This document shows, piece by piece, positions 901 to 27,739 of a stretch of 27,739 bases of DNA. Below the pieces are notes generated by a model. That model was not told where the DNA came from and did not search any database. It saw only the letters and a list, made by a program, of their open reading frames with translations. Where the stretch lies: positions 1 through 27,739 of the forward strand of contig CATOCA020000037.1 in the NCBI GenBank assembly GCA_951406725.2. Direction: 5' to 3'. The translations under genes and the position numbers were made by a program. Source of the stretch: Octopus vulgaris. Its lineage: Eukaryota. The stretch's first letter is position 1; each line of letters starts with the position of its first letter.

Positions 901-1369
901 AAAACGGAACATATATATGTTCCGTTTTCAGCAGAGAAAGACGTGATTGCCTTTGCTCTGTGAAAAAGTCTGCATAGAACGGCGAAATAACCCACTGTAG
1001 TTGCAAAACGTAAAACTCTAAGTCATAGAGATCAGTACAACACTTTGGTTAAAAATATTTTTAAAAATATATATATAAATATATACATATACACAGTAAT
1101 TTTCATTTTCGCCGAAACGCACATGGTGCAAAAATAACTGAACCAAGTTATCTCCTGCAAGAAAGAAAAAAGAAGCATCTCTCCCGAAAAAAATCCCGTA
1201 AACCAAAAAAATTATCCAGACCACATTGTTGGATTAGGTATCAATTTCATCTATTTCATATTTTATTTATTATTCTATTTTATCTTTCACTTAGGCCCAC
1301 ATCTTAGTTAAAGTTGCGATCGTCATTTTGTTTGTTTACATTTTCAATATCTGTTCTCGATATAATAAT

Positions 1370-2430
1370 TTTCCAGATACTCTATCTTCTAATTAGCCTT
1401 AAGATTAAATTAAATAACGTTTAATATTGATACCGTCAAATTAGCCTTAGGATTAAATTAAATAACGTTTAATATAGTTTAATATTGTTAATAATTATTG
1501 TTAATTAGCCTTAAGATTAAATTAAATAACGTTTAATATTGTTTTAATATTGTTAATAATTTTTCAGATACTCTATCTTCTAATTAGCCTTAAGATTAAA
1601 TTAAATAACGTTTAATATTAATAACGTCTAATTAGCCTTAGGATTAAATTAAATAACGTTTAATATTGTTAATAATTATTGTTAATTAGCCTTAGGATTA
1701 AATTAAATAACGTTTAATATTGTTTAATATTGTTAATAATTACTGTTAATTAGCCTTAAGATTAAATTAAATAACGTTTAATATTGTTTTAATATTGTTA
1801 ATACTTCTTCAGATACTCTATCTTCTAATTAGCCTTAAGATTAAATTAAATAACGTTTAATATTACCCACACTCTAATATAATATTAACATTGCTAATAT
1901 ATTTTCACATACTCTATCTCCTGATTAGCCTTAAGATTAAATAACGTTTTTATCCACACTCTAATATAATATTAATATTGCTAATATATTTTCAGATACT
2001 CTATCTTCTAATTAGCCTTAAGATTAAATTAAATAACGTTTAATATTAATAACGTCTAATTAGCCTTAAGATTAAATTAAATAACGGTTAATATTGCTTA
2101 ATATTGTATATATAATTTTTCAGATACTCTGTCTTCTAATTAGCCTTAAGATTAAATTAAATAACGTTTAATATTACCCGCACTCTAATATAATATTAAT
2201 ACTGCTAATATATTTTCAGATACTCTATCTCCAAATTAGCCTTAAGATTAAATAACGTTTTTTTACCCACACTCTAATATAATATTAATATTGCTAATAT
2301 ATTTTCAGATACTCTATCTCCTAATTAGCCTTAAGATTAAATAACGTTTTTACCCAAATAACGTTTTTACACAAACTTTAATATTGTTAATATTTCTTTT
2401 TCAAGTACTCTATCTTCTAATTAGCCTTAA
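1370..2430 (+). repeat. AT-rich tandem monomer array in the 5' UTR of A1 (core AATTAGCCTTA[A/G]GATTAAA(TTAAA)TAACGTTT, ~15 cores by manual count)
   Basis: The core recurs every ~50-100 nt with alternative spacer modules (CAGATACTCTATCTTCT, AATAATTATTGTT, ACCCACACTCTAATATAAT). Confidence 0.92.
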
Positions 2431-2491
2431 TATCTTCCTGTCTTCTCTCGAACATAATTAGATAGATAAACGGATAGACGGATTATCCAGC

Positions 2492-3406
2492 ATGTCCAGA
2501 GCATGGAGACGTGACGAGCTGGATTTATTTGTACGAGCATGGGAGTGCGCCGGCGGAGATAGCCCTAGCGAGGTGATTGCGGCTGCGCTGAAGAGCAGAG
2601 GCTACAAGAGGACAGCGGCTCAGATGGAGCGAAAGAGACAGGAATTCGTGCGCTCATATGCGCTTGTACGGTCGCACATTGGCGCACTTGATGCCATCTT
2701 TGAGAACGAGCGGAGCAAAGATGGCAAGAATGGAGACGATGAAAGAAGTCACCCCCACCTGGTGGACGCCCAGGAGGAGGTTTTGAATGAGAAACCTGCC
2801 CGGGAAGTGAACCCAGGTGCAAGTTCTCCAACCGGCAGCAAGGGCCATGGAGACGGAGAACCCGGTGAAGAGGTAGAGGGAGGAAGAAGAACTAAAAGAA
2901 GGACTGGAAGAGCTAAAGGAAAAGAAAAAGCTGAAGCAGGACCAAAGAGAGAAACAACCAGGAGTAGAAGTGGAACCGCAAAGGATGGAACCAAACAGCG
3001 CACACGGGTGTGTATGTTCTACCTGAGAGGTTCCTGCTGGCACGGAAAGGAAGGTGCAGGCTGCCGCTTTGCACATCGGGGACCCTGCCACAGAGACACG
3101 AGGCAGATGGACAAACCATCAACACAAAGAAAAGGGATGGACTACGCACCACCTGCCCCAAAGCGGAGGTACGCAGATGTTGTGCGCGCCACAAACAGCC
3201 AACATGATGTTGTCGAAAGAGCAGCTGCTGAGCAACAATCTTTTTTGTGCATGGCACAAAAGATCGTACAGCAGCTGACCTGGCTTCATCAAACCCAAGC
3301 CCGCAGGTGGGACTACCCACTATATACCAGACCACCACAGCAAACAGACACAGGATGGACACCGCCGGCAACAACAACGTACACCTCACCTCGATACTCC
3401 TACTGA
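2492..3406 (+). CDS. LINE ORF1 protein (304 aa): N-terminal Myb/SANT(trihelix)-like motif, charged low-complexity linker, CCCH zinc finger
   Basis: ATG-initiated ORF upstream of and overlapping ORF2, conserved in A2 and A3. Motifs are W-x3-E...W...IAAALKSRGYKRTAAQMERK and C-x7-C-x8-C-x3-H (3011-3076). Confidence 0.88.
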   Translation: MSRAWRRDELDLFVRAWECAGGDSPSEVIAAALKSRGYKRTAAQMERKRQEFVRSYALVRSHIGALDAIFENERSKDGKNGDDERSHPHLVDAQEEVLNEKPAREVNPGASSPTGSKGHGDGEPGEEVEGGRRTKRRTGRAKGKEKAEAGPKRETTRSRSGTAKDGTKQRTRVCMFYLRGSCWHGKEGAGCRFAHRGPCHRDTRQMDKPSTQRKGMDYAPPAPKRRYADVVRATNSQHDVVERAAAEQQSFLCMAQKIVQQLTWLHQTQARRWDYPLYTRPPQQTDTGWTPPATTTYTSPRYSY

Positions 3407-6354
3407 ACATCAGAGGACTGCAAACACTCAGTAACAGGACAAAGATCCCGTTCCTGAGAGACTTTGTTGCATGCAATCAAGCCTTATGCATAGCACTTAC
3501 AGAAACGCACCTGAAACCGGACATAGCAGATGCGGAGTTACACATACCACAGTATGCTGTACTACGGACCGACAGGAAAGAAAGGAGTCATGGAGGTGTT
3601 GCTATGTACATCCGTGAGGACCTCACACCCCAGGTCCTCTTGTCATACTCAAACTCGGTGTGTGACACACTAATTGTACATATTAGGCAACTTGATGTAG
3701 TTGTGTGTGCTACATATCGCCCTCCAGATGCCCCAAGCCATGTGGGCAAGTTCGAAGACTGCCTTATAAAAATAGAAGAAATTCTAACCACATTAGAACA
3801 ACACATAGGTGTGCTTCTTATGGGAGACTTCAATCTGCCCAATGTCAGATGGCCCGAGGGCCTTTCTCTCCCAGGAATGACAAGATGTGAACGAGGACAG
3901 GCGAGGTCCCTCCTGAACCTCATCAACACCCTGTACATGGAGCAGGTAATACTCCAACCAACCAGGGCAGGTAACACACTGGATCTCTGCTTCACAAATG
4001 ACATGGATCTCATCCATAATGTGAAAGTGACACCGACACTACTCTCGGATCACAACATGGTAGAGCTGACCATGTACGGGCCAAAAGAGAGCACGGACAT
4101 GCAGCCTACAAGAAACCCTCAAAATCTTTCCAGCTTGAACTACCATAAGGCAAACTGGAAACAAATTGAGAAAGAGATCCTCAAACAAAACTGGCCTGAA
4201 TGTCTCTCCTCGCCAGACATCGACGTGAAACTTCAACAATTCATGTCTGTAATGCAAGCCATATGCTACAAATGTGTCCCAGAGAGAAAGGCCACTGTAC
4301 ACAAGAACAAAATCCCCAGAGAGAGGAAAATTTTAATGAGACGGCGTACGAAATTTTCAAATCGCCTAAACAAACAGATTGAAAGCAGTGAAAAGTCCCG
4401 CCTAAAAATAAAACTGTTGGAAATCGAAAAATGTCTGCAACTCTCCCATGAAAAAGAAAGAGCAGACAAAGAAGCCTGGGCTATAGAAAACATAAAATCT
4501 AACCCCAGAGCTTTCTACAGGTATGCCAAAGAAACAGCTACAGTGCACTGTAGAATAGGGCCACTCCTCGAAAAGGATGGCACACTTACAGGAAAACCAA
4601 TGAGGGTAAGTGAAATACTGAATGAGCAATTCAAGAGTGTTTTCACTCCACCCCTTGGGCATCTCCAAATCACCAATCCAACTGACTTTTTTACCACTGC
4701 AGATATAAAATCAGAGGCGGCGACGATAGATTACATCGATATAAATGAAGACGATGTAACCAAGGCTATAGATGAAATGAAAACAGACTCAGCTACTGGC
4801 CCCGATGGATTCCCGGCAATCCTCCTAAAAGCATGTAAGAGAGTCCTAGCAAGACCACTGCAGTTCCTCTTTCAGAGCTTCCTTGCAGCTGGCAAACTTC
4901 CAGGAAAACTGAAGGAAGGTAAAATATGCCCCATTCATAAAGGAGGTAGCAGAGCGGAAGCCAAGAACTATAGACCTATCTCTCTGACCTCACACATCAG
5001 CAAGGTCATGGAACGAATAGTCAGAAGGAAGCTGATCACCTTCCTTGAAGAGAATGACCTGCTGCCCGACACCCAACATGGTTTCCGACCAGGGAGAAGC
5101 TGTTTAACTCAGCTCCTACAACACTATGACTGGGTGCTGAAACGGCTGCTCAACCACTCAAATGTGGAAGTGATATATCTCGACTTTGCAAAGGCCTTTG
5201 ATAAAGTCGATCATGGAATGATATGTCACAAACTGCGTGATCTCAACATAGTTGGAAAACTGGGAGAATGGCTTCATGACTTTCTGAAGGATAGAAGTCA
5301 GGTGGTAGTAGCCAATGGGGCCACCTCCATTAACACACAAATAGTGAGCGGTGTTCCGCAGGGCACTGTTCTGGGACCACTACTGTTCATAATGGCCCTC
5401 TCAGACATGCCCTCAGCCACGCAGAGAGCCACGATCACAAGTTATGCAGATGATACAAAAGTTTCACAGGCAATACAGAACCCTGAGGACACTAAACACC
5501 TGCAATGTGAGCTAGACGAAATATACAAGTGGGCTGAAAAGAATAGCATGCAGTTCAATGCTGGAAAGTTTCAAGCTTTATACTATCAGCATGCAAAACT
5601 GAATGCAATACCCAATGAATACACTGGACCCGGAGGGATTGCAATCCCAGAGGCACAATCAGTGCGTGACCTGGGTATTCACATGAGTGATGACGCGACC
5701 TTTCATGTACATGTTGCTAAACTGACAATGAAATGTAGACGGCTGGCTGGATGGATTCTTAGAACCTTTAGAACAAGAGAACAAGAAACCATGATGGTCC
5801 TCTGGAAGACACTTGTCCTAAGCCACTTTGACTATTGCTCTCAGCTATGGTCACCATCCAGTGTCAAGTTGATCACAGAACTTGAGGCGATCCAACGAAG
5901 CTACACAAAGAAGATAGCCTCTATGCAGAATGTAAGCTACTGGGAAAGACTCAAGAGATTAAAATTATATTCCCTGGAGCGTAGGCGGGAAAGATATGCC
6001 ATAATATACATCTGGAAGATCCTGGAGGGAAGTGTCCTGAACTTTGGCATCGAGAGTTACGCAAATGCCAGAACTGGGCGCCACTGCGTGGTGCCTAGGA
6101 CTCCAAACCTGCCATCAAGATGTAGGACAAGATACTGTGATAGCCTGGGCTTCCGAGGCCCACAGCTCTTCAATATCCTCCCGAAGAACCTGAGAGACCT
6201 GCATGGGGTGGATACAGATGTCTTTAAAATGAAGCTGGATCTCTTCCTGTCAGGTGTCCCAGATGAACCAACTTCACGGCAGGAGGGGCAGATGAGGGCA
6301 GCTGCATCGAACTCTCTCATGCACCAAATAGCAGTTGCTAGAAAGCCTCCATGA
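3355..6354 (+). CDS. LINE ORF2 protein: apurinic-like endonuclease + reverse transcriptase (999 aa from first ATG; frame open from 3232)
   Basis: APE motifs: NIRGL, LTETHL, YRPP, GDFNLP, LDL, SDH. RT motifs: [39 protein letters not shown]1-type C-terminus [10 protein letters not shown]...WKIL with no CCHC knuckle. The track start at 3247 is a GTG. Confidence 0.96.
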
Positions 6355-6379
6355 AGTGAAACCAAGTAGCAACACCAAA

Positions 6380-6419
6380 TGGCGGTGCCCCAGCATGGCC
6401 ACAGCTCATAAGCTGAAAC
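6380..6419 (+). other. 3' UTR tandem stem-loops of family A (putative ORF2p recognition signal)
   Basis: TGGCGGTGC-CCCA-GCATGGCCA, then CAGCT-CATA-AGCTG, then AAAC. Covarying equivalents occur in families B and C. Confidence 0.7.
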
Positions 6420-6422
6420 TAG

Positions 6423-6446
6423 AATCAATCAATCAATCAATCAATC
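6423..6446 (+). repeat. (AATC)6 3' tail of A1
   Basis: Direct reading. A short tandem-repeat tail instead of poly(A) is typical of CR1/L2 elements. Confidence 0.95.
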
Positions 6447-7841
<1,395 letters not shown>

Positions 7842-8488
7842 GACACTGATGGTCCTATGGAAAACATTTGTCCTCAGCCGCTTGGACTACTGCTCCCAAC
7901 TTTGGTCACCACACAATATAAAACAAACAGCAGAACTCGAAGCAACTCAGAGAAGCTACAAAAAGAAAATCGTCTCAATGCAAAATGTCAGCTACTGGGA
8001 AAGACTGAAGGTATTAAACCTCTTCTCCCTGGAGCGGAGGCGGGAGAGATATGCAGTGATATACATCTGGAAAATCCTGGAGGGTCTTGTCCCAAACTTT
8101 GGCATTCAAAGTTACTCCAACCGCAGAACGGGGCGCCGCTGCGTGGTGCCAAGGATTCCAACATCACCATCAAAATACAGGTCCAGATACTGCAACAGCT
8201 TGGGTTTCAGAGGACCACAACTCTTTAACATCCTCCCTAAATGCCTGTGAGACTTACATGGTGTGGATGTGGGTTTCTTTAAAACTAAACTGGATCTCTT
8301 CTTGTTGGGAGTCCCAGATGAACCTACCTCACGACAGGAGACACGGATGCGGGCAGCAGCATCGAACTCCCTTGTTGATGAAGTGCCACGTATCAGAGGT
8401 GGATTCACAAACTAGTGTAGCTCATTCAGCGGTGGTGCCCCAGCATGACCGCGGCCTTCGGGCTAAAACATTTTTAAGGATTTAAGGA
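7842..8488 (+). mobile_element. 5'-truncated CR1-group LINE, family B (closer to A than to C), tail (TTTAAGGA)2
   Basis: Encodes an ORF2 C-terminus colinear with A ([21 protein letters not shown]...[12 protein letters not shown]) but with a different 3' UTR and tail. Flanked by (TA)n. Confidence 0.92.
7843..8415 (+). pseudogene. ORF2 C-terminal fragment of family B with a premature stop at 8248-8250
   Basis: TGA replaces the Arg codon of A's NLRDLHG. The frame continues [29 protein letters not shown]...GFTN to TAG at 8413-8415. Confidence 0.88.
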
Positions 8489-8702: not shown

Positions 8703-9368
8703 TTGGGAGTAATTGTGGACAACAACGTAAGCTGGGCCACTCATATAAACACCAAAGTTGACATGGCCCGCAGAATGTGTTCCTGGATTCTCAGAACTTC
8801 CCAGTCGAGAGATATCCACACCATTATCCTTCTCTTCTCCACTTTTGCCCGACCCCAGCTTGAATACTGTTGTCCACTGTGGTCTCCCCACACAATACAA
8901 GGTATCATAAAAGTCGAAGCACCTCAAAGGGCAATCACAAAAAAGATAGATGGCATGACAGGCCTCGACTATTGGGGTCGACTAGAAAAGCTAAAACTCT
9001 ATTCTCTCCAACGTCGTCGTGAGCGCTACATCATCTGCATGATGTGGAAAATATTCCATCAGCATTGCCCAAATGATGTTGGCATCCCCTTTAAGGTACA
9101 TCCAAGGCTTGGGCCCCGTGCCATCCGCCCAAAACAAAAATCGCACTCTCATCTCATAACAGCAATACGGCACAATTATTTCACCTCAATTGGCCCCGCT
9201 CTCTTTAACATTACACCAAAACACATTAAAACAGAAAAGGACCCTATAGGGTTCAAGAAGTCTTTGGACAGATTCCTTCAAGAAATCCCGGATAAACCCC
9301 CTACACCCGGATATGTCTCTGTAAACAATAACTCTCTACTTGAGTGGAAAATAGTGCCCAAATTCTGA
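8703..9368 (+). pseudogene. ORF2 C-terminal fragment of C1 (no start, no internal stop)
   Basis: Track ORF of 221 aa; begins mid-RT at the (D)LG motif. Confidence 0.88.
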
Positions 9369-9458
9369 CTTGAAAGACTTCACCAGGTGGTGCTATTAAT
9401 TTAGACATGGCCTGGGCCAATAATGGCCGAAACCTATCAAAGTATCAAAGTATCAAAG
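8703..9458 (+). mobile_element. 5'-truncated CR1-group LINE, family C, copy C1, tail (TATCAAAG)3
   Basis: Encodes an ORF2 C-terminus (LGVIVD...[11 protein letters not shown]...DKPPTPGY). Nearly identical to C2 but truncated at a different point. Confidence 0.93.
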
Positions 9459-13542
<4,084 letters not shown>

Positions 13543-13634
13543 GATTGATTGATTGATTGATTGATTCTAGTTTCAGCTTATGAGCTGTGGCCATGCTGGG
13601 GCACCGCCATTTGGTGTTGCTACTTGGTTTTACT

Positions 13635-16631
13635 TCATGGAGGCTTTCTAGCAACTGCTATTTGGTGCATGAGAGAGTTCGACGCAGCTGCCCTCATCTG
13701 CCCCTCCTGCCGTGAAGTTTGTTCATCTGGGACACCTGACAGGAAGAGATCCAGCTTCATTTTAAAGACATCTGTATCCACCCCATGCAGGTCTCTCAGG
13801 TTCTTCGGGAGGATATTGAAGAGCTGTGGGCCTCGGAAGCCCAGGCTATCACAGAATCTTGTCCTACATCTTGATGGCAGGTTTGGAGTCCTAGGCACCA
13901 CGCAGTGGCGCCCAGTTCTGGCATTTGCGTAACTCTCGATGCCAAAGTTCAGGACACTTCCCTCCAGGATCTTCCAGATGTATATTATGGCATATCTTTC
14001 CCGCCTACGCTCCAGGGAATATAATTTTAATCTCTTGAGTCTTTCCCAGTAGCTTACATTCTGCATAGAGGCTATCTTCTTCGTGTAGCTTCGTTGGATC
14101 GCCTCAAGTTCTGTGATCAACTTGACACTGGATGGTGACCATAGCTGAGAGCAATAGTCAAAGTGGCTTAGGACAAGTGTCTTCCAGAGGACCATCATGG
14201 TTTCTTGTTCTCTTGTTCTAAAGGTTCTAAGAATCCAGCCAGCCAGCCGTCTACATTTCATTGTCAGTTTAGCAACATGTACATGAAAGGTCGCGTCATC
14301 ACTCATGTGAATACCCAGGTCACGCACTGATTGTGCCTCTGGGATTGCAATCCCTCCGGGTCCAGTGTATTCATTGGGTATTGCATTCAGTTTTGCATGC
14401 TGATAGTATAAAGCTTGAAACTTTCCAGCATTGAACTGCATGCTATTCTTTTCAGCCCACTTGTATATTTCGTCCAGCTCACATTGCAGGTGTTTAGTGT
14501 CCTCAGGGTTCTGTATTGCCTGTGAAACTTTTGTATCATCTGCATAACTTGTGATCGTGGCTCTCTGCGTGGCTGAGGGCATGTCTGAGAGGGCCATTAT
14601 GAACAGTAGTGGTCCCAGAACAGTGCCCTGCGGAACACCGCTCACTATTTGTGTGTTAATGGAGGTGGCACCATTGGCTACTACCACCTGACTTCTATCC
14701 TTCAGAAAGTCATGAAGCCATTCTCCCAGTTTTCCAACTATGTTGAGATCACGCAGTTTGTGACATATCATTCCATGATCGACTTTATCAAAAGCCTTTG
14801 CAAAGTCGAGATATATCACTTCCACATTTGAGTGGTTGAGCAGCCGTTTCAGCACCCAGTCATAGTGTTGTAGGAGCTGAGTTAAACAGCTTCTCCCTGG
14901 TCGGAAACCATGTTGGGTGTCGGGCAGCAAGTCATTCTCTTCAAGGAAGGTGATCAGCTTCCTTCTGACTATTCGTTCCATGACCTTGCTGATGTGTGAG
15001 GTCAGAGAGATAGGTCTATAGTTCTTGGCTTCCGCTCTGCTATCTCCTTTATGAATGGGGCATATTTTACCTTCCTTCAGTTTTCCTGGAAGTTTGCCAG
15101 CTGCAAGGAAGCTCTGAAAGAGGAACTGCAGTGGTCTTGCTAGGACTCTCTTACATGCTTTTAGGAGGATTGCCGGGAATCCATCGGGGCCAGTAGCTGA
15201 GTCTGTTTTCATTTCATCTATAGCCTTGGTTACATCGTCTTCCTTTATATCGATGTAATCTATCGTCGCCGCCTCTGATTTTATATCTGCAGTGGTAAAA
15301 AAGTCAGTTGCATTGGTGATTTGGAGATGCCCAAGGGGTGGAGTGAAAACACTCTTGAATTGCTCATTCAGTATTTCACTTACCCTCATTGGTTTTCCTG
15401 TAAGTGTGCCATCCTTTTCGAGGAGTGGCCCTATTCTACAGTGCACTGTAGCTGTTTCTTTGGCATACCTGTAGAAAGCTCTGGGGTTAGATTTTATGTT
15501 TTCTATAGCCCAGGCTTCTTTGTCTGCTCTTTCTTTTTCATGGGAGAGTTGCAGACATTTTTCGATTTCCAACAGTTTTATTTTTAGGCGGGACTTTTCA
15601 CTGCTTTCAATCTGTTTGTTTAGGCGATTTGAAAATTTCGTACGCCGTCTCATTAAAATTTTCCTCTCTCTGGGGATTTTGTTCTTGTGTACAGTGGCCT
15701 TTCTCTCTGGGACACATTTGTAGCATATGGCTTGCATTACAGACATGAATTGTTGAAGTTTCACGTCGATGTCTGGCGAGGAGAGACATTCAGGCCAGTT
15801 TTGTTTGAGGATCTCTTTCTCAATTTGTTTCCAGTTTGCCTTATGGTAGTTCAAGCTGGAAAGATTTTGAGGGTTTCTTGTAGGCTGCATGTCCGTGCTC
15901 TCTTTTGGCCCGTACATGGTCAGCTCTATCATGTTGTGATCCGAGAGTAGTGTCGGTGTCACTTTCACATTATGGATGAGATCCATGTCATTTGTGAAGC
16001 AGAGATCCAGTGTGTTACCTGCCCTGGTTGGTTGGAGTATTACCTGCTCCATGTACAGGGTGTTGATGAGGTTCAGGAGGGACCTCGCCTGTCCTCGTTC
16101 ACATCTTGTCATTCCTGGGAGAGAAAGGCCCTCGGGCCATCTGACATTGGGCAGATTGAAGTCTCCCATAAGAAGCACACCTATGTGTTGTTCTAATGTG
16201 GTTAGAATTTCTTCTATTTTTATAAGGCAGTCTTCAAACTTGCCCACATGGCTTGGGGCATCTGGAGGGCGATATGTAGCACACACAACTACATCAAGTT
16301 GCCTAATATGTACAATTAGTGTGTCACACACCGAGTTTGAGTATGACAAGAGGACCTGGGGTGTGAGGTCCTCACGGATGTACATAGCAACACCTCCATG
16401 ACTCCTTTCTTTCCTGTCGGTCCGTAGTACAGCATACTGTGGTATGTGTAACTCCGCATCTGCTATGTCCGGTTTCAGGTGCGTTTCTGTAAGTGCTATG
16501 CATAAGGCTTGATTGCATGCAACAAAGTCTCTCAGGAACGGGATCTTTGTCCTGTTACTGAGTGTTTGCAGTCCTCTGATGTTCAGTAGGAGCATCGAGG
16601 TGAGGTGTACGTTGTTGCCGGCGGTGTCCAT
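13635..16631 (-). CDS. ORF2 (APE endonuclease + RT) of A2
   Basis: Intact frame. About 8 substitutions and one 1-aa indel relative to A1 over the track ORFs. Catalytic motifs are retained. Confidence 0.95.
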
Positions 16632-17494
16632 CCTGTGTCTGTTTGCTGTGGTGGTCTGGTATATAGTGGGTAGTCCCACCTGCGGGCTTGGGTTTGATGA
16701 AGCCAGGTCAGCTGCTGTACAATCTTTTGTGCCATGCACAAAAAAGATTGTTGCTCAGCAGCTGCTCTTTCGACAACATCATGTTGGCGGTTTGTGGCGC
16801 GCACAACATCTGCGTACCTCCGCTTTGAGGCAGGTGGTGCGTGGTCCATCCCTTTTCTTTGTGTTAATGGTTTGTCCATCTGCCTCGTGTCTCTGTGGCA
16901 GGGTCCCCGATGTGCAAAGCGGCAGCCTGCACCTTCCTTTCCATGCCAGCAGGAACCTCTCAGGTAGAACATACACACCCGTGTGCGCTGTTTGGTTCCA
17001 TCCTTTGCGGTTCCACTTCTACTCCTGGTTGTTTCACTCTTTGGTCCTGCTTGAGCTTTTTCTTTTCCTTTAGCTCTTCCAGTCCTTCTTTTAGTTCTTC
17101 TTCCTCCCTCTACCTCTTCACCGGGTTCTCCGTCTCCATGGCCGTTGCTGCCGGTTGGAGAACTTGCACCTGGGTTCACTTCCCGGGCAGGTTTCTCATT
17201 CAAAACCTCCTCCCGGGCGTCCACCAGGTGGGAGTGACTTCTTTCATCGTCTCCATTCTTGCCATCTTTGCCCCGCTCGTTCTCAAAGATGGCATCAAGT
17301 GCGCCAATGTGCGACCGTACAAGCGCATATGAGCGCACGAATTCCCGTCTCTTTCGCTCCATCTGAGCCACTGTCCTCTTGTAGCCTCTGCTCTTCAGCG
17401 CAGCCGCAATCACCTCGCTAGGGCTATCTCCACCGGCGCACTCCCATGCTCGTACGAATAAATCCAGCTCGTCAGGTCTCCATGCTCTCGACAT
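16583..17494 (-). CDS. ORF1 (Myb/SANT-like + CCCH) of A2, 303 aa
   Basis: Colinear with A1 ORF1. Confidence 0.88.
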   Translation of the reverse strand: MSRAWRPDELDLFVRAWECAGGDSPSEVIAAALKSRGYKRTVAQMERKRREFVRSYALVRSHIGALDAIFENERGKDGKNGDDERSHSHLVDAREEVLNEKPAREVNPGASSPTGSNGHGDGEPGEEVEGGRRTKRRTGRAKGKEKAQAGPKSETTRSRSGTAKDGTKQRTRVCMFYLRGSCWHGKEGAGCRFAHRGPCHRDTRQMDKPLTQRKGMDHAPPASKRRYADVVRATNRQHDVVERAAAEQQSFLCMAQKIVQQLTWLHQTQARRWDYPLYTRPPQQTDTGWTPPATTYTSPRCSY

Positions 17495-17555
17495 GCTGGA
17501 TAATCCGTCTATCCGTTTATCTATCTAATTATGTTCGAGAGAAGACAGGAAGATA

Positions 17556-18670
17556 TTAAGGCTAATTAGAAGATAGAGTACTTGAAAAAGAAATATTAAC
17601 AATATTAAAGTTTGTGGGTAAAAACGTTATTTAATCTTAAGGCTAATTAGGGGATAGAGTATCTGAAAATGTATTAGCAATATTAATATTATATTAGAGT
17701 GTGGGTAAAAACGTTGTTTAATCTTAAGGCTAATTAGGACAAAGAGTATCTGAAAATATATTAGCAATATTAATATTATATTAGAGTGTGGGTAATATTA
17801 AACGTTATTTAATTTAATCTTAAGGCTAATTAGAAGGCAGAGTATCTGAAAAATTATTAACAATATTAAGCAATATTAACCGTTATTTAATTTAATCTTA
17901 AGGCTAATTAGACGTTATTAATATTAAACGTTATTTAATTTAATCTTAAGGCTAATTAGAAGATAGAGTATCTGAAGAATTATTAACAATATTAAAACAA
18001 TATTAAACGTTATTTAATTTAATCTTAAGGCTAATTAACAATAATTATTAACAATATTAAACAATATTAAACGTTATATAATTTAATCCTAAGGCTAATT
18101 AGACGTTATTAATATTAAACGTTATTTAATTTAATCTTAAGGCTAATTAGAAGATAGAGTATCGGAAAAATTATTAACAATATTAAAACAATATTAAACG
18201 TTATTTAATTTAATCTTAAGGCTAATTAACAATAATTATTAACAATATTAAACAATATTAAACGTTATTTAATTTAATCCTAAGGCTAATTTGACGGTAT
18301 CAATATTAAACGTTATTTAATTTAATCTTAAGGCTAATTAGAAGATAGAGTATCTGAAAAATTATTAACAATATTAAACAATATTAAACGTTATTTAATT
18401 TAATCTTAAGGCTAATTAACAATAATTATTAACAATATTAAACAATATTAAAGGTTATTTAATTTAATCTTAAGGCTAATTAGACGTTATCAATATTAAA
18501 CGTTATTTAATTTAATCTCAAGGCTAATTAGAAGATAGAGTATCTGAGAAATTATTATATCGAGAACAGATATTGAAAATGTAAACAAACAAAATTTATA
18601 TTAGAGTGTGGGTAATATTAAACGTTATTTAATTTAATCTTAAGGCTAATTAGAAGATAGAGTATCTGAA
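17556..18670 (-). repeat. 5' UTR tandem monomer array of A2 (~16 cores, different module order from A1)
   Basis: Recurrent TAAGGCTAATT on the + strand. Confidence 0.9.
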
Positions 18671-19121
18671 AAATTATTATATCGAGAACAGATATTGAAA
18701 ATGTAAACAAACAAAATGACGATCGCAACTTTAACTAAGATGTGGGCCTAAATGAAGGATAAAATAGAATACTAAATACAATATGAAATAGATGAAAGTG
18801 ATACTTAATCCAACAATGTGTTCTGGATTTTTTGGTTTACGGGATTTTTTTCAGGAGAGATGCTTCTTTTTTCTTTCTTGCAGGAGATAACTTAATTCAG
18901 TTATTTTTGCACCATGTGCGTTTCGGCGAAAATGAAAATTACTGTGTATATGTATATATTTATATATATATTTTTTTAAATATTTTTAACCAAAGTGTTG
19001 TAGTGATCTCTATGACTTAGAGTTTTACGTTTTGCAACTACAGTGGGTTATTTCGCCGATCTATGCAAACTTTTTCACAGAGAAGAGGCAATACGTCTCT
19101 AACTGTTGAAAACGGAACCGG

Positions 19122-20819
<1,698 letters not shown>

Positions 20820-20910
20820 ATTGATTGATTGATTGATTGATTCTAGTTTCAGCTTATGAGCTGTGGCCATGCTGGGGCACCGCCATTTGGTGTTGCTACT
20901 TGGTTTCACT

Positions 20911-23906
20911 TCATGGAGGCTTTCTAGCAACTGCTATTTGGTGCATGAGAGAGTTCGATGCAGCTGCCCTCATCTGCCCCTCCTGCCGTGAAGTTGGTTC
21001 ATCTGGGACACCTGACAGGAAGAGATCCAGCTTCATTTTAAAGACATCTGTATCCACCCCATGCAGGTCTCTCAGGTTCTTCGGGAGGATATTGAAGAGC
21101 TGTGGGCCTCGGAAGCCCAGGCTATCACAGAATCTTGTCCTACATCTTGATGGCAGGTTTGGAGTCCTAGGCACCACGCAGTGGCGCCCAGTTCTGGCAT
21201 TTGCGTAACTCTCGATGCCAAAGTTCAGGACACTTCCCTCCAGGATCTTCCAGATGTATATTATGGCATATCTTTCCCGCCTACGCTCCAGGGAATATAA
21301 TTTTAATCTCTTGAGTCTTTCCCAGTAGCTTACATTCTGCATAGAGGCTATCTTCTTTGTGTAGCTTCGTTGGATCGCCTCAAGTTCTGTGATCAACTTG
21401 ACACTGGATGGTGACCATAGCTGAGAGCAATAGTCAAAGTGGCTTAGGACAAGTGTCTTCCAGAGGACCATCATGGTTTCTTGTTCTCTTGTTCTAAAGG
21501 TTCTAAGAATCCATCCAGCCAGCCGTCTACATTTCATTGTCAGTTTAGCAACATGTACATGAAAGGTCGCGTCATCACTCATGTGAATACCCAGGTCACG
21601 CACTGATTGTGCCTCTGGGATTGCAATCCCTCCGGGTCCAGTGTATTCATTGGGTATTGCATTCAGTTTTGCATGCTGATAGTATAAAGCTTGAAACTTT
21701 CCAGCATTGAACTGCATGCTATTCTTTTCAGCCCACTTGTATATTTCGTCCAGCTCACATTGCAGGTGTTTAGTGTCCTCAGGGTTCTGTATTGCCTGTG
21801 AGACTTTTGTATCATCTGCATAACTTGTGATCGTGGCTCTCTGCGTGGCTGAGGGCATGTCTGAGAGGGCCATTATGAACAGTAGTGGTCCCAGAACAGT
21901 GCCCTGCGGAACACCGCTCACTATTTGTGTGTTAATGGAGGTGGCCCCATTGGCTACTACCACCTGACTTCTATCCTTCAGAAAGTCATGAAGCCATTCT
22001 CCCAGTTTTCCAACTATGTTGAGATCACGCAGTTTGTGACATATCATTCCATGATCGACTTTATCAAAGGCCTTTGCAAAGTCGAGATATATCACTTCCA
22101 CATTTGAGTGGTTGAGCAGCCGTTTCAGCACCCAGTCATAGTGTTGTAGGAGCTGAGTTAAACAGCTTCTCCCTGGTCGGAAACCATGTTGGGTGTCGGG
22201 CAGCAAGTCATTCTCTTCAAGGAAGGTGATCAGCTTCCTTCTGACTATTCGTTCCATGACCTTGCTGATGTGTGAGGTCAGAGAGATAGGTCTATAGTTC
22301 TTGGCTTCCGCTCTGCTACCTCCTTTATGAATGGGGCATATTTTACCTTCCTTCAGTTTTCCTGGAAGTTTGCCAGCTGCAAGGAAGCTCTGAAAGAGGA
22401 ACTGCAGTGGTCTTGCTAGGACTCTCTTACATGCTTTTAGGAGGATTGCCGGGAATCCATCGGGGCCAGTAGCTGAGTCTGTTTTCATTTCATCTATAGC
22501 CTTCGTTACATCGTCTTCCTTTATATCGATGTAATCTATCGTCGCCGCCTCTGATTTTATATCTGCAGTGGTAAAAAAGTCAGTTGGATTGGTGATTTGG
22601 AGATGCCCAAGGGGTGGAGTGAAAACACTCTTGAATTGCTCATTCAGTATTTCACTTACCCTCATTGGTTTTCCTGTAAGTGTGCCATCCTTTTCGAGGA
22701 GTGGCCCTATTCTACAGTGCACTGTAGCTGTTTCTTTGGCATACCTGTAGAAAGCTCTGGGGTTAGATTTTATGTTTTCTATAGCCCAGGCTTCTTTGTC
22801 TGCTCTTTCTTTTTCATGGGAGAGTTGCAGACATTTTTCGATTTCCAACAGTTTTATTTTTAGGCGGGACTTTTCACTGCTTTCAATCTGTTTGTTTAGG
22901 CGATTTGAAAATTTCGTACGCCGTCTCATTAAAATTTTCCTCTCTCTGGGGATTTTGTTCTTGTGTACAGTGGCCTTTCTCTCTGGGACACATTTGTAGC
23001 ATATGGCTTGCATTACAGACATGAATTGTTGAAGTTTCACGTCGATGTCTGGCGAGGAGAGACATTCAGGCCAGTTTTGTTTGAGGATCTCTTTTCAATT
23101 TGTTTCCAGTTTGCCTTATGGTAGTTCAAGCTGGAAAGATTTTGAGGGTTTCTTGTAGGCTGCATGTCCGTGCTCTCTTTTGGCCCGTACATGGTCAGCT
23201 CTATCATGTTGTGATCCGAGAGTAGTGTCGGTGTCACTTTCACATTATGGATGAGATCCATGTCATTTGTGAAGCAGAGATCCAGTGTGTTACCTGCCCT
23301 GGTTGGTTGGAGTATTACCTGCTCCATGTACAGGGTGTTGATGAGGTTCAGGAGGGACCTCGCCTGTCCTCGTTCACATCTTGTCATTCCTGGGAGAGAA
23401 AGGCCCTCGGGCCATCTGACATTGGGCAGATTGAAGTCTCCCATAAGAAGCACACCTATGTGTTGTTCTAATGTGGTTAGAATTTCTTCTATTTTTATAA
23501 GGCAGTCTTCGAACTTGCCCACATGGCTTGGGGCATCTGGAGGGCGATATGTAGCACACACAACTACATCAAGTTGCCTAATATGTACAATTAGTGTGTC
23601 ACACACCGAGTTTGAGTATGACAAGAGGACCTGGGGTGTGAGGTCCTCACGGATGTACATAGCAACACCTCCATGACTCCTTTCTTTCCTGTCGGTCCGT
23701 AGTACAGCATACTGTGGTATGTGTAACTCCGCATCTGCTATGTCCGGTTTCAGGTGCGTTTCTGTAAGTGCTATGCATAAGGCTTGATTGCATGCAACAA
23801 AGTCTCTCAGGAACGGGATCTTTGTCCTGTTACTGAGTGTTTGCAGTCCTCTGATGTTCAGTAGGAGTATCGAGGTGAGGTGTACGTTGTTGCCGGCGGT
23901 GTCCAT
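20911..23906 (-). pseudogene. ORF2 of A3 split by a 1-bp deletion near 23094
   Basis: GATCTCTTTTCAA versus GATCTCTTTCTCAA in A2. The 325-aa and 709-aa track ORFs join across this point. Confidence 0.85.
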
Positions 23907-24768
23907 CCTGTGTCTGTTTGCTGTGGTGGTCTGGTATATAGTGGGTAGTCCCACCTGCGGGCTTGGGTTTGATGAAGCCAGGTCAGCTGCTGTACAATCT
24001 TTTGTGCCATGCACAAAAAAGATTGTTGCTCAGCAGCTGCTCTTTCGACAACATCATGTTGGCTGTTTGTGGCGCGCACAACATCTGCGTACCTCCGCTT
24101 TGGGGCAGGTGGTGCGTAGTCCATCCCTTTTCTTTGTGTTGATGGTTTGTCCATCTGCCTCGTGTCTCTGTGGCAGGGTCCCCGATGTGCAAAGCGGCAG
24201 CCTGCACCTTCCTTTCCGTGCCAGCAGGAACCTCTCAGGTAGAACATACACACCCGTGTGCGCTGTTTGGTTCCATCCTTTGCGGTTCCACTTCTACTCC
24301 TGGTTGTTTCACTCTTTGGTCCTGCTTGAGCTTTTTCTTTTCCTTTAGCTCTTCCAGTCCTTCTTTTAGTTCTTCTTCCTCCTCTACCTCTTCACCGGGT
24401 TCTCCGTCTCCATGGCCCTTGCTGCCGGTTGGAGAACTTGCACCTGGGTTCACTTCCCGGGCAGGTTTCTCATTCAAAACCTCCTCCTGGGCGTCCACCA
24501 GGTGGGGGTGACTTCTTTCATCGTCTCCATTCTTGCCATCTTTGCCCCGCTCGTTCTCAAAGATGGCATCAAGTGCGCCAATGTGCGACCGTACAAGCGC
24601 ATATGAGCGCACGAATTCCTGTCTCTTTCGCTCCATCTGAGCCGCTGTCCTCTTGTAGCCTCTGCTCTTCAGCGCAGCCGCAATCACCTCGCTAGGGCTA
24701 TCTCCGCCGGCGCACTCCCATGCTCGTACGAATAAATCCAGCTCGTCACGTCTCCATGCTCTGGACAT
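23858..24768 (-). pseudogene. ORF1 of A3 split by a 1-bp deletion near 24381
   Basis: TTCCTCCTCTACC versus TTCCTCCCTCTACC in A2. The 177-aa and 131-aa track ORFs join across this point. Confidence 0.83.
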
Positions 24769-24828
24769 GCTGGATAATCCGTCTATCCGTTTATCTATCT
24801 AATTATGTTCGAGAGAAGACAGGAAGAT

Positions 24829-26320
24829 ATTAAGGCTAATTAGAAGATAGAGTACTTGAAAAAGAAATATTAACAATATTAAAGTTTGTGTAAAAACGTT
24901 ATTTGGGTAAAAACGTTATTTAATCTTAAGGCTAATTAGGAGATAGAGTATCTGAAAATATATTAGCAATATTAATATTATATTAGAGTGTGGGTAAAAA
25001 AAACGTTATTTAATCTTAAGGCTAATTTGGAGATAGAGTATCTGAAAATATATTAGCAATATTAATATTATATTAGAGTGTGGGTAATATTAAACGTTAT
25101 TTAATTTAATCTTAAGGCTAATTAGAAGACAGAGTATCTGAAAAATTATATATACAATATTAAGCAATATTAACCGTTATTTAATTTAATCTTAAGGCTA
25201 ATTAGACGTTATTAATATTAAACGTTATTTAATTTAATCTTAAGGCTAATTAGAAGATAGAGTATCTGAAAATATATTAGCAATATTAATATTATATTAG
25301 AGTGTGGATAAAAACGTTATTTAATCTTAAGGCTAATCAGGAGATAGAGTATCTGAAAATATATTAGCAATATTAATATTATATTAGAGTGTGGGTAATA
25401 TTAAACGTTATTTAATTTAATCTTAAGGCTAATTAGAAGATAGAGTATCTGAAGAAGTATTAACAATATTAAAACAATATTAAACGTTATTTAATTTAAT
25501 CTTAAGGCTAATTAACAATAATTATTAACAATATTAAACAATATTAAACGTTATTTAATTTAATCCTAAGGCTAATTAATAATAATTATTAACAATATTA
25601 AACGTTATTTAATTTAATCCTAAGGCTAATTAACAATAATTATTAACAATATTAAACGTTATTTAATTTAATCCTAAGGCTAATTAGACGTTATTAATAT
25701 TAAACGTTATTTAATTTAATCTTAAGGCTAATTAGAAGATAGAGTATCTGAAAAATTATTAACAATATTAAAACAATATTAAACGTTATTTAATTTAATC
25801 TTAAGGCTAATTAACAATAATTATTAACAATATTAAACTATATTAAACGTTATTTAATTTAATCCTAAGGCTAATTTGACGGTATCAATATTAAACGTTA
25901 TTTAATTTAATCTTAAGGCTAATTAACAGTAATTATTAACAATATTAAACAATATCGAGAACAGTTATTGAAAATGTAAACAAACCAAATGACGATCGCA
26001 ACTTTAACTAAGATGTGGGCCTAAGTGAAAGATAAAATAGAATAATAAATAAAATATGAAATAGATGAAATTGATACTTAATCCAACAATGTGGTCTGGA
26101 TAATTTTTTTGGTTTACGGGATTTTTTTCGGGAGAGATGCTTCTTTTTTCTTTCTTGCAGGAGATAACTTGATTCAGTTATTTTTGCACCATGTGCGTTT
26201 CGGCGAAAACTATATTAAACGTTATTTAATTTAATCCTAAGGCTAATTTGACGGTATCAATATTAAACGTTATTTAATTTAATCTTAAGGCTAATTAGAA
26301 GATAGAGTATCTGGAAAATT
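24829..26320 (-). repeat. 5' UTR tandem monomer array of A3 (~18 cores) including part of a ~375-bp tandem duplication
   Basis: Recurrent TAAGGCTAATT. 25835-26206 is repeated at 26207-26585. Confidence 0.88.
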
Positions 26321-26772
26321 ATTATATCGAGAACAGTTATTGAAAATGTAAACAAACCAAATGACGATCGCAACTTTAACTAAGATGTGGGCCTAAGTGA
26401 AAGATAAAATAGAATAATAAATAAAATATGAAATAGATGAAATTGATACTTAATCCAACAATGTGGTCTGGATAATTTTTTTTTTGGTTTACGGGATTTT
26501 TTTTCGGGAGAGATGCTTCTTTTTTCTTTCTTGCAGGAGATAACTTAATTCAGTTATTTTTGCACCATGTGCGTTTCGGCGAAAATGAAAATTACTGTGT
26601 ATATGTATATATTTATATATATATTTTTTAAATATTTTTAACCAAAGTGTTGTAGTGATCTCTATGACTTAGAGTTTTACGTTTTGCAACTACAGTGGGT
26701 TATTTCGCCGTTCTATGCAGACTTTTTCACAGAGCAAAGGCAATCACGTCTTTCTCTGCTGAAAACGGAACC

Positions 26773-27234: not shown

Positions 27235-27739
27235 ATCCAACTGACTTTTTTACCTATCCAACTGACTTTTTTACCACTGCAGATATAAAATCAGAGGCGG
27301 CGACGATAGATTACATCGATATAAATGAAGACGATGTAACCAAGGCTATAGATGAAATGAAAACAGACTCAGCTACTGGCCCCGATGGATTCCCGGCAAT
27401 CCTCCTAAAAGCATGTAAGAGAGTCCTAGCAAGACCACTGCAGTTCCTCTTTCAGAGCTTCCTTGCAGCTGGCAAACTTCCAGGAAAACTGAAGGAAGGT
27501 AAAATATGCCCCATTCATAAAGGAGGTAGCAGAGCGGAAGCCAAGAACTATAGACCTATCTCTCTGACCTCACACATCAGCAAGGTCATGGAACGAATAG
27601 TCAGAAGGAAGCTGATCACCTTCCTTGAAGAGAATGACTTGCTGCCCGACACCCAACATGGTTTCCGACCAGGGAGAAGCTGTTTAACTCAGCTCCTACA
27701 ACACTATGACTGGGTGCTGAAACGGCTGCTCAACCACTC
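27235..27739 (+). mobile_element. 5'-truncated family A LINE, copy A4 (continues beyond the window); ORF2 fragment [11 protein letters not shown]...RLLNH
   Basis: 27256-27739 matches A1 4676-5159 almost exactly. The first 20 nt are duplicated at the junction. Confidence 0.93.

Follow-up and report, generated by a model that had tools for sequence, protein, structure and literature searches.

A predicted Myb/SANT-like domain heads ORF1 of a CR1-type LINE in Octopus vulgaris

The locus

The DNA considered here is a stretch of 27,739 nucleotides from Octopus vulgaris (GenBank assembly GCA_951406725.2, contig CATOCA020000037.1, positions 1 to 27,739, forward strand), analysed at its full length and referred to as the window. 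It holds a cluster of retrotransposons of the kind that lacks long terminal repeats (non-LTR), with seven alternating-AT tracts between them (7,522 bases summed); sequence belonging to long interspersed nuclear elements (LINEs) accounts for 20.2 of the 27.7 kb. One family, family A, is present as three full-length copies (A, B and C) and one that is 5′-truncated. Our subject is the first open reading frame (ORF1) of this family and, in particular, its N-terminus. The features of copy A are as follows:

919..2491, +: 5′ untranslated region (UTR), including a tandem array rich in AT (about 1363-2430)
2492..3406, +: ORF1, 304 amino acids, ATG at 2492; Myb, charged low-complexity linker, CCCH finger, FL helix, stop
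2498..2665, +: predicted Myb/SANT-like three-helix domain, ORF1 residues 3-58 (Pfam, AlphaFold2, fold searches, family conservation)
2666..2707, +: amphipathic extension of helix 3, residues 59-72, conserved (family alignment, both models)
3011..3076, +: single CCCH zinc finger, residues 174-195, of the same type as the first finger of proteins with a PHD and three CCCH fingers
3200..3301, +: conserved C-terminal helix with the motif Q-x-S/N/A/D-F-L-x-M, residues 237-270
3241..3247, +: heptamer T TTT TTG of slippery type at the FL motif, read in the ORF1 frame (a weak lead)
3355..6354, +: ORF2 from its first ATG, apurinic/apyrimidinic-type (APE) endonuclease and reverse transcriptase; overlaps the end of ORF1 in the -1 frame
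6423..6447, +: 3′ tail, (AATC)n running into a (TA)n tract

ORF2 encodes an N-terminal APE followed by the reverse transcriptase, with PF14529, PF03372 and PF00078 all above the Pfam cut-off. Elements of the CR1 group (Jockey superfamily) carry a short tandem-repeat 3′ tail and leave 5′-truncated copies. Family A shows both traits, and on these features together with the domain order of ORF2 we read it as a CR1-group LINE. Copies A, B and C, apart from the differences described below, are otherwise 98-99% identical and both ORFs are open in two of them, so the element was probably active recently.

The N-terminus of ORF1

A sequence-only reading of the window had proposed, from a peptide covering residues 4-56 of ORF1 (2501-2659, +), that ORF1 begins with a Myb/SANT-like domain whose nearest family is PF13837. 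Pfam, AlphaFold2, VIA-align and the ESM Atlas agree on this point, each with moderate force. PF13837 (Myb_DNA-bind_4) is the top Pfam match of the N-terminal 83 amino acids (E 6.4e-4, 20.5 bits) and is matched at E≤0.1 by six of the 21 aligned members of the domain family described below. AlphaFold2 predicts three helices (residues 7-20, 25-35 and 42-79), the third of which runs to residue 79 in both models. The model from the single sequence has a mean predicted local distance difference test (pLDDT) score of 81.7, with the remaining four models at 60-68; with 21 sequences the mean rises to 86.3 and all five models lie at 83-86. Compared with 48,161 chains by VIA-align, the first model reached a best Z of 8.4 (root-mean-square deviation 1.7, 57 residues aligned) and the second 7.8 (1.8, 55 residues). 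The top ranks (Z 6.8-8.4) are held by ARR1, LUX and PHR2 (GARP Myb), the RAD Myb, TEAD, GT-1, the SANT domain of DNAJC2, Zeste and TRF1; the highest of them, of Myb, GARP and SANT types, score Z 7.4-8.4, with a deviation of about 2 over 55-58 residues in the best. Neighbours in the ESM Atlas that bear a family name are mostly Myb_DNA-bind_3/4, at scores of 0.79-0.86 (lead level). The residues of the Myb pattern are kept in order: W5, E9, W17, I29, L33, G37, F/Y38, R40, T41, Q44, K48 and Y56.

PF13837 comprises plant trihelix proteins, animal MSANTD/Zeste-like proteins and PIF/Harbinger accessory proteins. The window domain resembles it in having it as best Pfam match, in its long third helix and in having GT-1 (Z 7.4) and Zeste (Z 6.9) among its fold neighbours; it differs in falling below the cut-off, in the first loop, which is shorter (residues 3-62 correspond to profile positions 2-72) and in a lysine or arginine at the aromatic position. 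No plant trihelix, MSANTD/Zeste-like or PIF/Harbinger member was found as a relative of the window domain.

A profile made without the window sequence has exactly three matches in the six frames of the window, namely copies A, B and C, so that the further suggestion of looking for the domain in the other full-length copies is answered for both:

17321..17488, −: the same domain in copy B (ATG 17494, −); ORF1 open, 17494-16583; R7P, A42V and Q50R
24595..24762, −: the same domain in copy C (ATG 24768, −); residues 1-72 identical to copy A

Copies A and B differ at 19 of 909 bases in ORF1 and at 14 of 2948 in ORF2, a divergence about fourfold greater in ORF1 (2492-3406 against 16583-17494). The changed codons comprise 14 replacement and 5 silent in ORF1, against 6 replacement and 8 silent in ORF2; either fast evolution of ORF1 or a swap of 5′ ends between subfamilies could account for the excess. 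In copy C both ORFs are frameshifted by single bases, ORF1 near codon 129.

Conservation of the domain

A search of 1.84 billion representatives returned 33 matches at E≤0.001. The family alignment consists of the window domain and the 20 relatives that have the N-terminal region (21 rows); P0012, P0028 and P0032, which match through CCCH fingers only, and P0011, which matches through the linker only, stand outside it. Nine of the 30 matching proteins looked up have a name, and all nine are from Octopus vulgaris or O. sinensis. One of the O. vulgaris proteins, P0050, has the whole ORF1 architecture at 40% identity.

Pairwise identity within the domain ranges from 21 to 82%, with a median of 37% (189 pairs). 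Against four full-length relatives with the whole domain, the Myb core of the window protein is identical at 19-27 of 56 positions, and the linker at only 7/80, 9/61, 10/70 and 28/91. Given this median, and a core conserved far above the linker, the alignment indicates that the domain is under selection and is an old part of an octopus ORF1 lineage rather than a recent passenger.

Conserved positions are W5, E9, W17, P25, I29, L33, K34, G37, F/Y38, R40, Q44, I45, E46, R47, K48, K/R49, E51, F52, R54, S55 and Y56. The N-terminal tryptophan and the core of helix 1 are thus present (W5 13/16, E9 13/16, W17 15/18), and conservation continues into the extension of helix 3 as far as about residue 70 (H62 16/21, L66 16/20, D67 15/20, I69 15/20). 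The helix-3 region (residues 34-60) carries a net charge of +1 to +7 in every one of the 21 rows, and its basic and polar positions are well kept (R40 19/21, Q44 19/21, R47 16/21, K48 20/21, R54 15/21). Histone-binding SANT domains have an acidic helix-3 surface; none is seen here, the helix being basic throughout the alignment, and residues 34-60 appear to fit nucleic-acid binding better than histone binding of the SANT kind. A tree of the domain was left aside, since most of it lacked resolution, with support for 3 of its 19 branches.

P0002 (Octopus) looked like a relative without the domain; its sequence, however, sets in only at residue 59, and the complete domain is there in P0050, a member of the same cluster. 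A match to LisH_WDR26 (E 0.008) covers only 20 residues in one of 21 members, and the single NCBIfam match among 13 members is due to chance.

Several results count against a Myb/SANT-like assignment. The PF13837 gathering cut-off is 27 bits, which neither the window domain nor its relatives (15.6-19.2) reach, and P0050, P0003, P0005 and P0020 have no PF13837 match. VIA-align calls Z scores of 7-8 common for small helical models. While the suggested combination of AlphaFold and Foldseek did yield a three-helix model, Foldseek found nothing at E≤0.001 for either model (best 0.12 and 0.46), and calmodulin took first rank in the second search. Searches of PDB sequences gave no match for the single sequence or for a profile of short members, and no Myb chain among the 38 matches to a longer profile. 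Classical Myb repeats and trihelix domains have an aromatic residue after the helix-3 lysine; at the corresponding position 49 the family has K in 17 rows, R in three and M in one, and never an aromatic residue, while helix 3 also bears conserved acidic residues (E46 and E51, 16/21 each). The sequence preference of GT-1 or c-Myb is not transferable to this domain. No test by itself passes its formal threshold, and the assignment follows from their agreement. If the three helices were a chance arrangement unrelated to Myb/SANT, however, one would not expect the sequence profile, the neighbours from the language model and both fold searches to lead to one superfamily, nor the Myb core residues from W5 to Y56 to follow the pattern in order. 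We regard a chance arrangement as highly improbable, and a Myb/SANT-like fold for the N-terminus of ORF1, on the models and comparisons above, as very likely.

The body of ORF1 and its PHD-headed counterparts

Downstream of the linker lie three features that the sequence-only reading overlooked: the CCCH finger, the F-L-x-M helix and a tryptophan beyond it. The finger matches Torus (E 1.5e-5) and zf-CCCH (E 0.0068) in Pfam, both below cut-off. The helix is identical at 15-23 of 31-34 residues in six relatives and is followed, 35-37 residues after FL, by the conserved tryptophan, whose codon context in the window contains the ORF2 ATG. The six Pfam families returned for ORF1 (E up to 10) include no RRM, CCHC knuckle, Tnp22, PHD or esterase.

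Two weak matches from the family search, P0034 and P0027, have three CCCH fingers each, and P0034 also has an N-terminal PHD (E 0.0035). Their first fingers are identical to that of the window ORF1 at 13/26 (P0034) and 14/26 (P0027) positions, and Myb-type and PHD-type proteins align by hhalign at 96.6% (E 6.4e-10), the finger driving the match. The distance from FL to tryptophan is 35-37 residues in five Myb-type proteins and 36 in two of PHD type (P0034 and P0039); the pattern did not parse P0027 and P0016 (2 of 11). Proteins with a PHD and three CCCH fingers (the P0034 cluster and P0027) therefore share the first finger, the FL-x-M motif and the FL-to-Trp spacing with the window ORF1, and differ in having a PHD head and three fingers where it has a Myb head and one.

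Since the layout of finger, FL motif and tryptophan spacing is the same, the Myb module most likely occupies, as judged from sequence, the PHD slot of a shared ORF1 body by way of a domain swap. Two points tell against this. The FL helices of the two types do not align significantly (hhalign 1.4%), and P0034 and P0027, which we take to be CR1-like LINE ORF1s of marine invertebrates, are seen without genomic context. We infer both the direction of the swap and that the PHD-type proteins belong to LINEs. The simplest reading is of a single ORF1 body on which PHD and Myb heads are interchangeable; it fits the domain shuffling described in PMC4120745, which reports that PHD has been gained and lost in this way and suggests for it a role in general genome targeting. 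Our literature search found no paper on proteins with a PHD and three CCCH fingers, and CCCH has no occurrence in the main text of PMC4120745; this type, with its shared C-terminal layout, is itself perhaps undescribed in the open literature.

Known ORF1 types and the origin of the domain

That a Myb head is atypical for a CR1/L2 ORF1, as the sequence-only reading had it, agrees with the domain table of PMC4120745, which covers 448 elements and lists PHD, RRM, CCHC, Tnp22, esterase and zf/lz and no Myb; Myb and SANT are likewise absent from the main text of that paper. The open full-text literature, when searched, yielded no description of a LINE ORF1 with a Myb/SANT domain; Repbase, Dfam, supplements and subscription journals lay outside this search, and a database entry may exist. 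Within what was searched, an ORF1 with a Myb/SANT-like head and one CCCH finger is a new architecture, carried by a CR1-type LINE that is ordinary in other respects.

The closest comparison is with CR1/L2 ORF1 types I-V (the scheme of Khazina and Weichenrieder, as extended in the text of PMC4120745), especially the PHD-led types IIIA and V. These also have a small N-terminal module and a disordered linker, are built of modular, shuffled domains and lie upstream of, and overlapping, an APE-RT ORF2. The window ORF1 differs in having a Myb/SANT-like helix-turn-helix (HTH) for PHD and CCCH for CCHC, and in being without RRM, Tnp22 or esterase. TRAS (R1 clade), with a Myb in ORF2, and R2, with N-terminal zinc finger and Myb, are likewise target-selective non-LTR elements with a Myb domain, as described in PMC5537684 and PMC13708176 respectively; in both the Myb is within the catalytic protein, whereas the window element has it in ORF1, barring a frameshift fusion. 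A precedent for an HTH in a LINE ORF1 is the HTH_1 called in the Coccomyxa L1/Zepp element in a passage of PMC5203782, although that HTH is of LysR type and the element belongs to the L1 clade of a green alga.

It is plausible that the domain was captured from elsewhere. No host or Harbinger donor protein is among the 33 matches from the 1.84 billion representatives. A word search with a single protein found one relative among 1360 candidates; profile searches found none among 7806 proteins of 651-2000 amino acids and two, both already aligned, among 6726 of 37-650 amino acids. Both profile searches are insensitive, and their blanks are weak because known members were missed. A search of the ESM Atlas with the whole of ORF1 gave no usable match, a viral fold library nothing at E≤0.001, and plasmids no match. 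Prokaryotic genome contigs scanned for stray LINEs gave 45 and 63 pattern matches, none of them confirmed. An O. sinensis protein that bears the name lipin LPIN3, P0011 (XP_036355764.1), has an end 65% identical to the linker of the window ORF1; it is probably a gene model that absorbed a piece of LINE, or a case of exonisation.

Insertion sites and possible roles of the domain

The insertions in the window belong to three families:

about 919-6447, +: family A, copy A, full-length
7843-8487, +: family D, 3′ piece, 77% identical to A over the aligned part of ORF2
8704-9458, +, and 11937-13136, −: family E, 3′ pieces, 40% identical to A over the aligned part of ORF2
13542-19119, −: family A, copy B, full-length
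20817-26772, −: family A, copy C, full-length
from 27237: family A, 5′-truncated copy

Families D and E are present as 3′ pieces only, with ORF1 lost. All 13 visible junctions of seven insertions adjoin alternating-AT sequence, in both orientations, as expected of a self-complementary target. None of the insertions is nested, an outcome with a probability of 0.002-0.07 depending on insertion order (assuming uniform insertion, ignoring later growth of the tracts, and for one window). A preference for TA sequence, common to the three families, is likely to be real.

The 3′ tails of the three families differ, being built of a 4-base unit (6423-6447), an 8-base unit (8469-8487) and another 8-base unit (9435-9461); each ends in bases able to pair with alternating AT.

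We infer a DNA-binding and docking role for the Myb module, and consider it somewhat probable, from the character of helix 3, that in this CR1-group octopus LINE the module provides loose docking on DNA or chromatin. An unlikely alternative is that the Myb-like fold has lost DNA binding and acts within the ribonucleoprotein in RNA binding or self-association, like other domains of LINE ORF1s. The non-canonical helix 3 (K/R49, E46, E51) would suit such a role, as would the hydrophobic extension (59-72), conserved and without a partner in the monomer model, and the presence of SANT and spliceosomal Cdc5 domains among the fold neighbours; but helix 3, basic in all rows, is the best-conserved part of the domain, and the top-ranked fold matches are DNA-binding domains. 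The sequence-only reading went further and had the module directly read (TA)n or AT-rich DNA and so confine insertions to TA arrays. The junctions and the lack of nesting, despite the extent of LINE sequence in the window, speak for this, and Myb domains do occur in TRAS and are used by R2, although for TRAS a telomere-targeting role is only suggested in PMC5537684. Yet families D and E use the same target, though only their pieces without ORF1 are seen; the specificity of APE elements is credited to the endonuclease in passages of PMC3812793 and PMC5537684; and the sample is a single window rather than the genome, in which TA tracts may have grown after insertion. Direct reading of TA by the module seems to us distinctly unlikely. 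Microsatellite targeting by APE elements is, according to PMC3812793, not well understood.

The Myb module could also be tied to the endonuclease, in R2-like manner, if a -1 ribosomal slip at the FL motif gave a minor Myb-CCCH-EN-RT fusion (EN, endonuclease). The heptamer T TTT TTG stands in the ORF1 frame; the -1 frame, which is that of ORF2, becomes open three codons upstream of it (region 3233-3357) and extends through ORF2; heptamers of this kind number two in ORF1 and none in ORF2; and in each of the eight proteins that have the motif, Myb-type and PHD-type alike, F-L follows S, N, A or D, all of which have codons that can end in U. On the other hand, no stimulatory structure is found in four windows downstream (z +0.5 to +1.9), ORF2 has its own ATG (3355) within a tryptophan codon context that relatives conserve, the conservation of the helix following FL is in the ORF1 frame, and since the overlap takes up about 57 of 304 codons, it would be no rare event for one heptamer out of two to lie in it. 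We doubt that the slip occurs, and think very unlikely its combination with a swap of the histone-reading PHD for Myb into an R2-like Myb/zinc-finger arm that reads (TA)n on an APE element; such an arm, if real, would be a route to microsatellite targeting absent from the literature searched. Extremely unlikely is the idea, also from the sequence-only reading, that the ORF1 protein regulates its own promoter through sites in the UTR array that resemble plant GT boxes. The GT-like 14-mer is indeed located where that reading placed it (1859-1872, −) and matches pea box II, as that sequence appears in PMC4267404, at 12 of 14 bases, which 2 of 400 shuffled UTRs equalled; a degenerate GT core is present 24 times, where shuffles give 16 ± 3.9. 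Shuffling, however, destroys tandem repeats and so overstates significance. The UTR of copy A has one such site, and the window's five matches all go back to a single site; at three mismatches nine sites are found with 5.7 expected; one mismatch falls inside the GGTTAA core of a motif picked after the fact; the commonest 14-mers of the array (11-13 copies, containing short palindromes) are different ones; and the domain is only 13-16% identical to GT-1.

Other features of the window

The UTR array (A 1363-2430, B 17553-18717, C 24827-25955) varies among copies in the number and order of its monomers, and in copy C about 400 bases of the 5′ UTR are duplicated (26209-26350). Four AT units at the 5′ end of copy A (901-928) are flanked by an inverted duplication of 10 bases, a hairpin-like junction not found in B or C. 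Two 5′-truncated copies (13085-13136 and 27237-27275) start in short direct duplications, whose repeats are in one case separated by AT units; such duplications at truncated 5′ ends suggest that reverse transcription ended with template jumps.

Discussion

The observations can be assembled into a model in which loose docking is the task of the Myb module. From an ancestral type of ORF1 body with a PHD and three CCCH fingers would have arisen an octopus lineage with a diverged Myb/SANT-like helix-turn-helix and a single finger. The Myb module would take over the job proposed for PHD, docking the ribonucleoprotein on genomic DNA or chromatin through its basic helix 3 and with loose sequence preference, while the CCCH finger may bind RNA and the C-terminal helix may mediate self-association. 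The exact (TA)n site would then be set by the APE endonuclease and by pairing of the (AAUC)n tail.

With the predicted Myb/SANT-like head the repertoire of CR1/L2-type ORF1s gains a domain. According to the text of PMC4120745, the N-terminal module of ORF1 had, at the date of that paper, been without functional study; PHD and Myb on one body form a natural pair for asking what this module does. If it sets the choice of target, it would account for how an APE element targets microsatellites, and it would be a targeting part that can be swapped.
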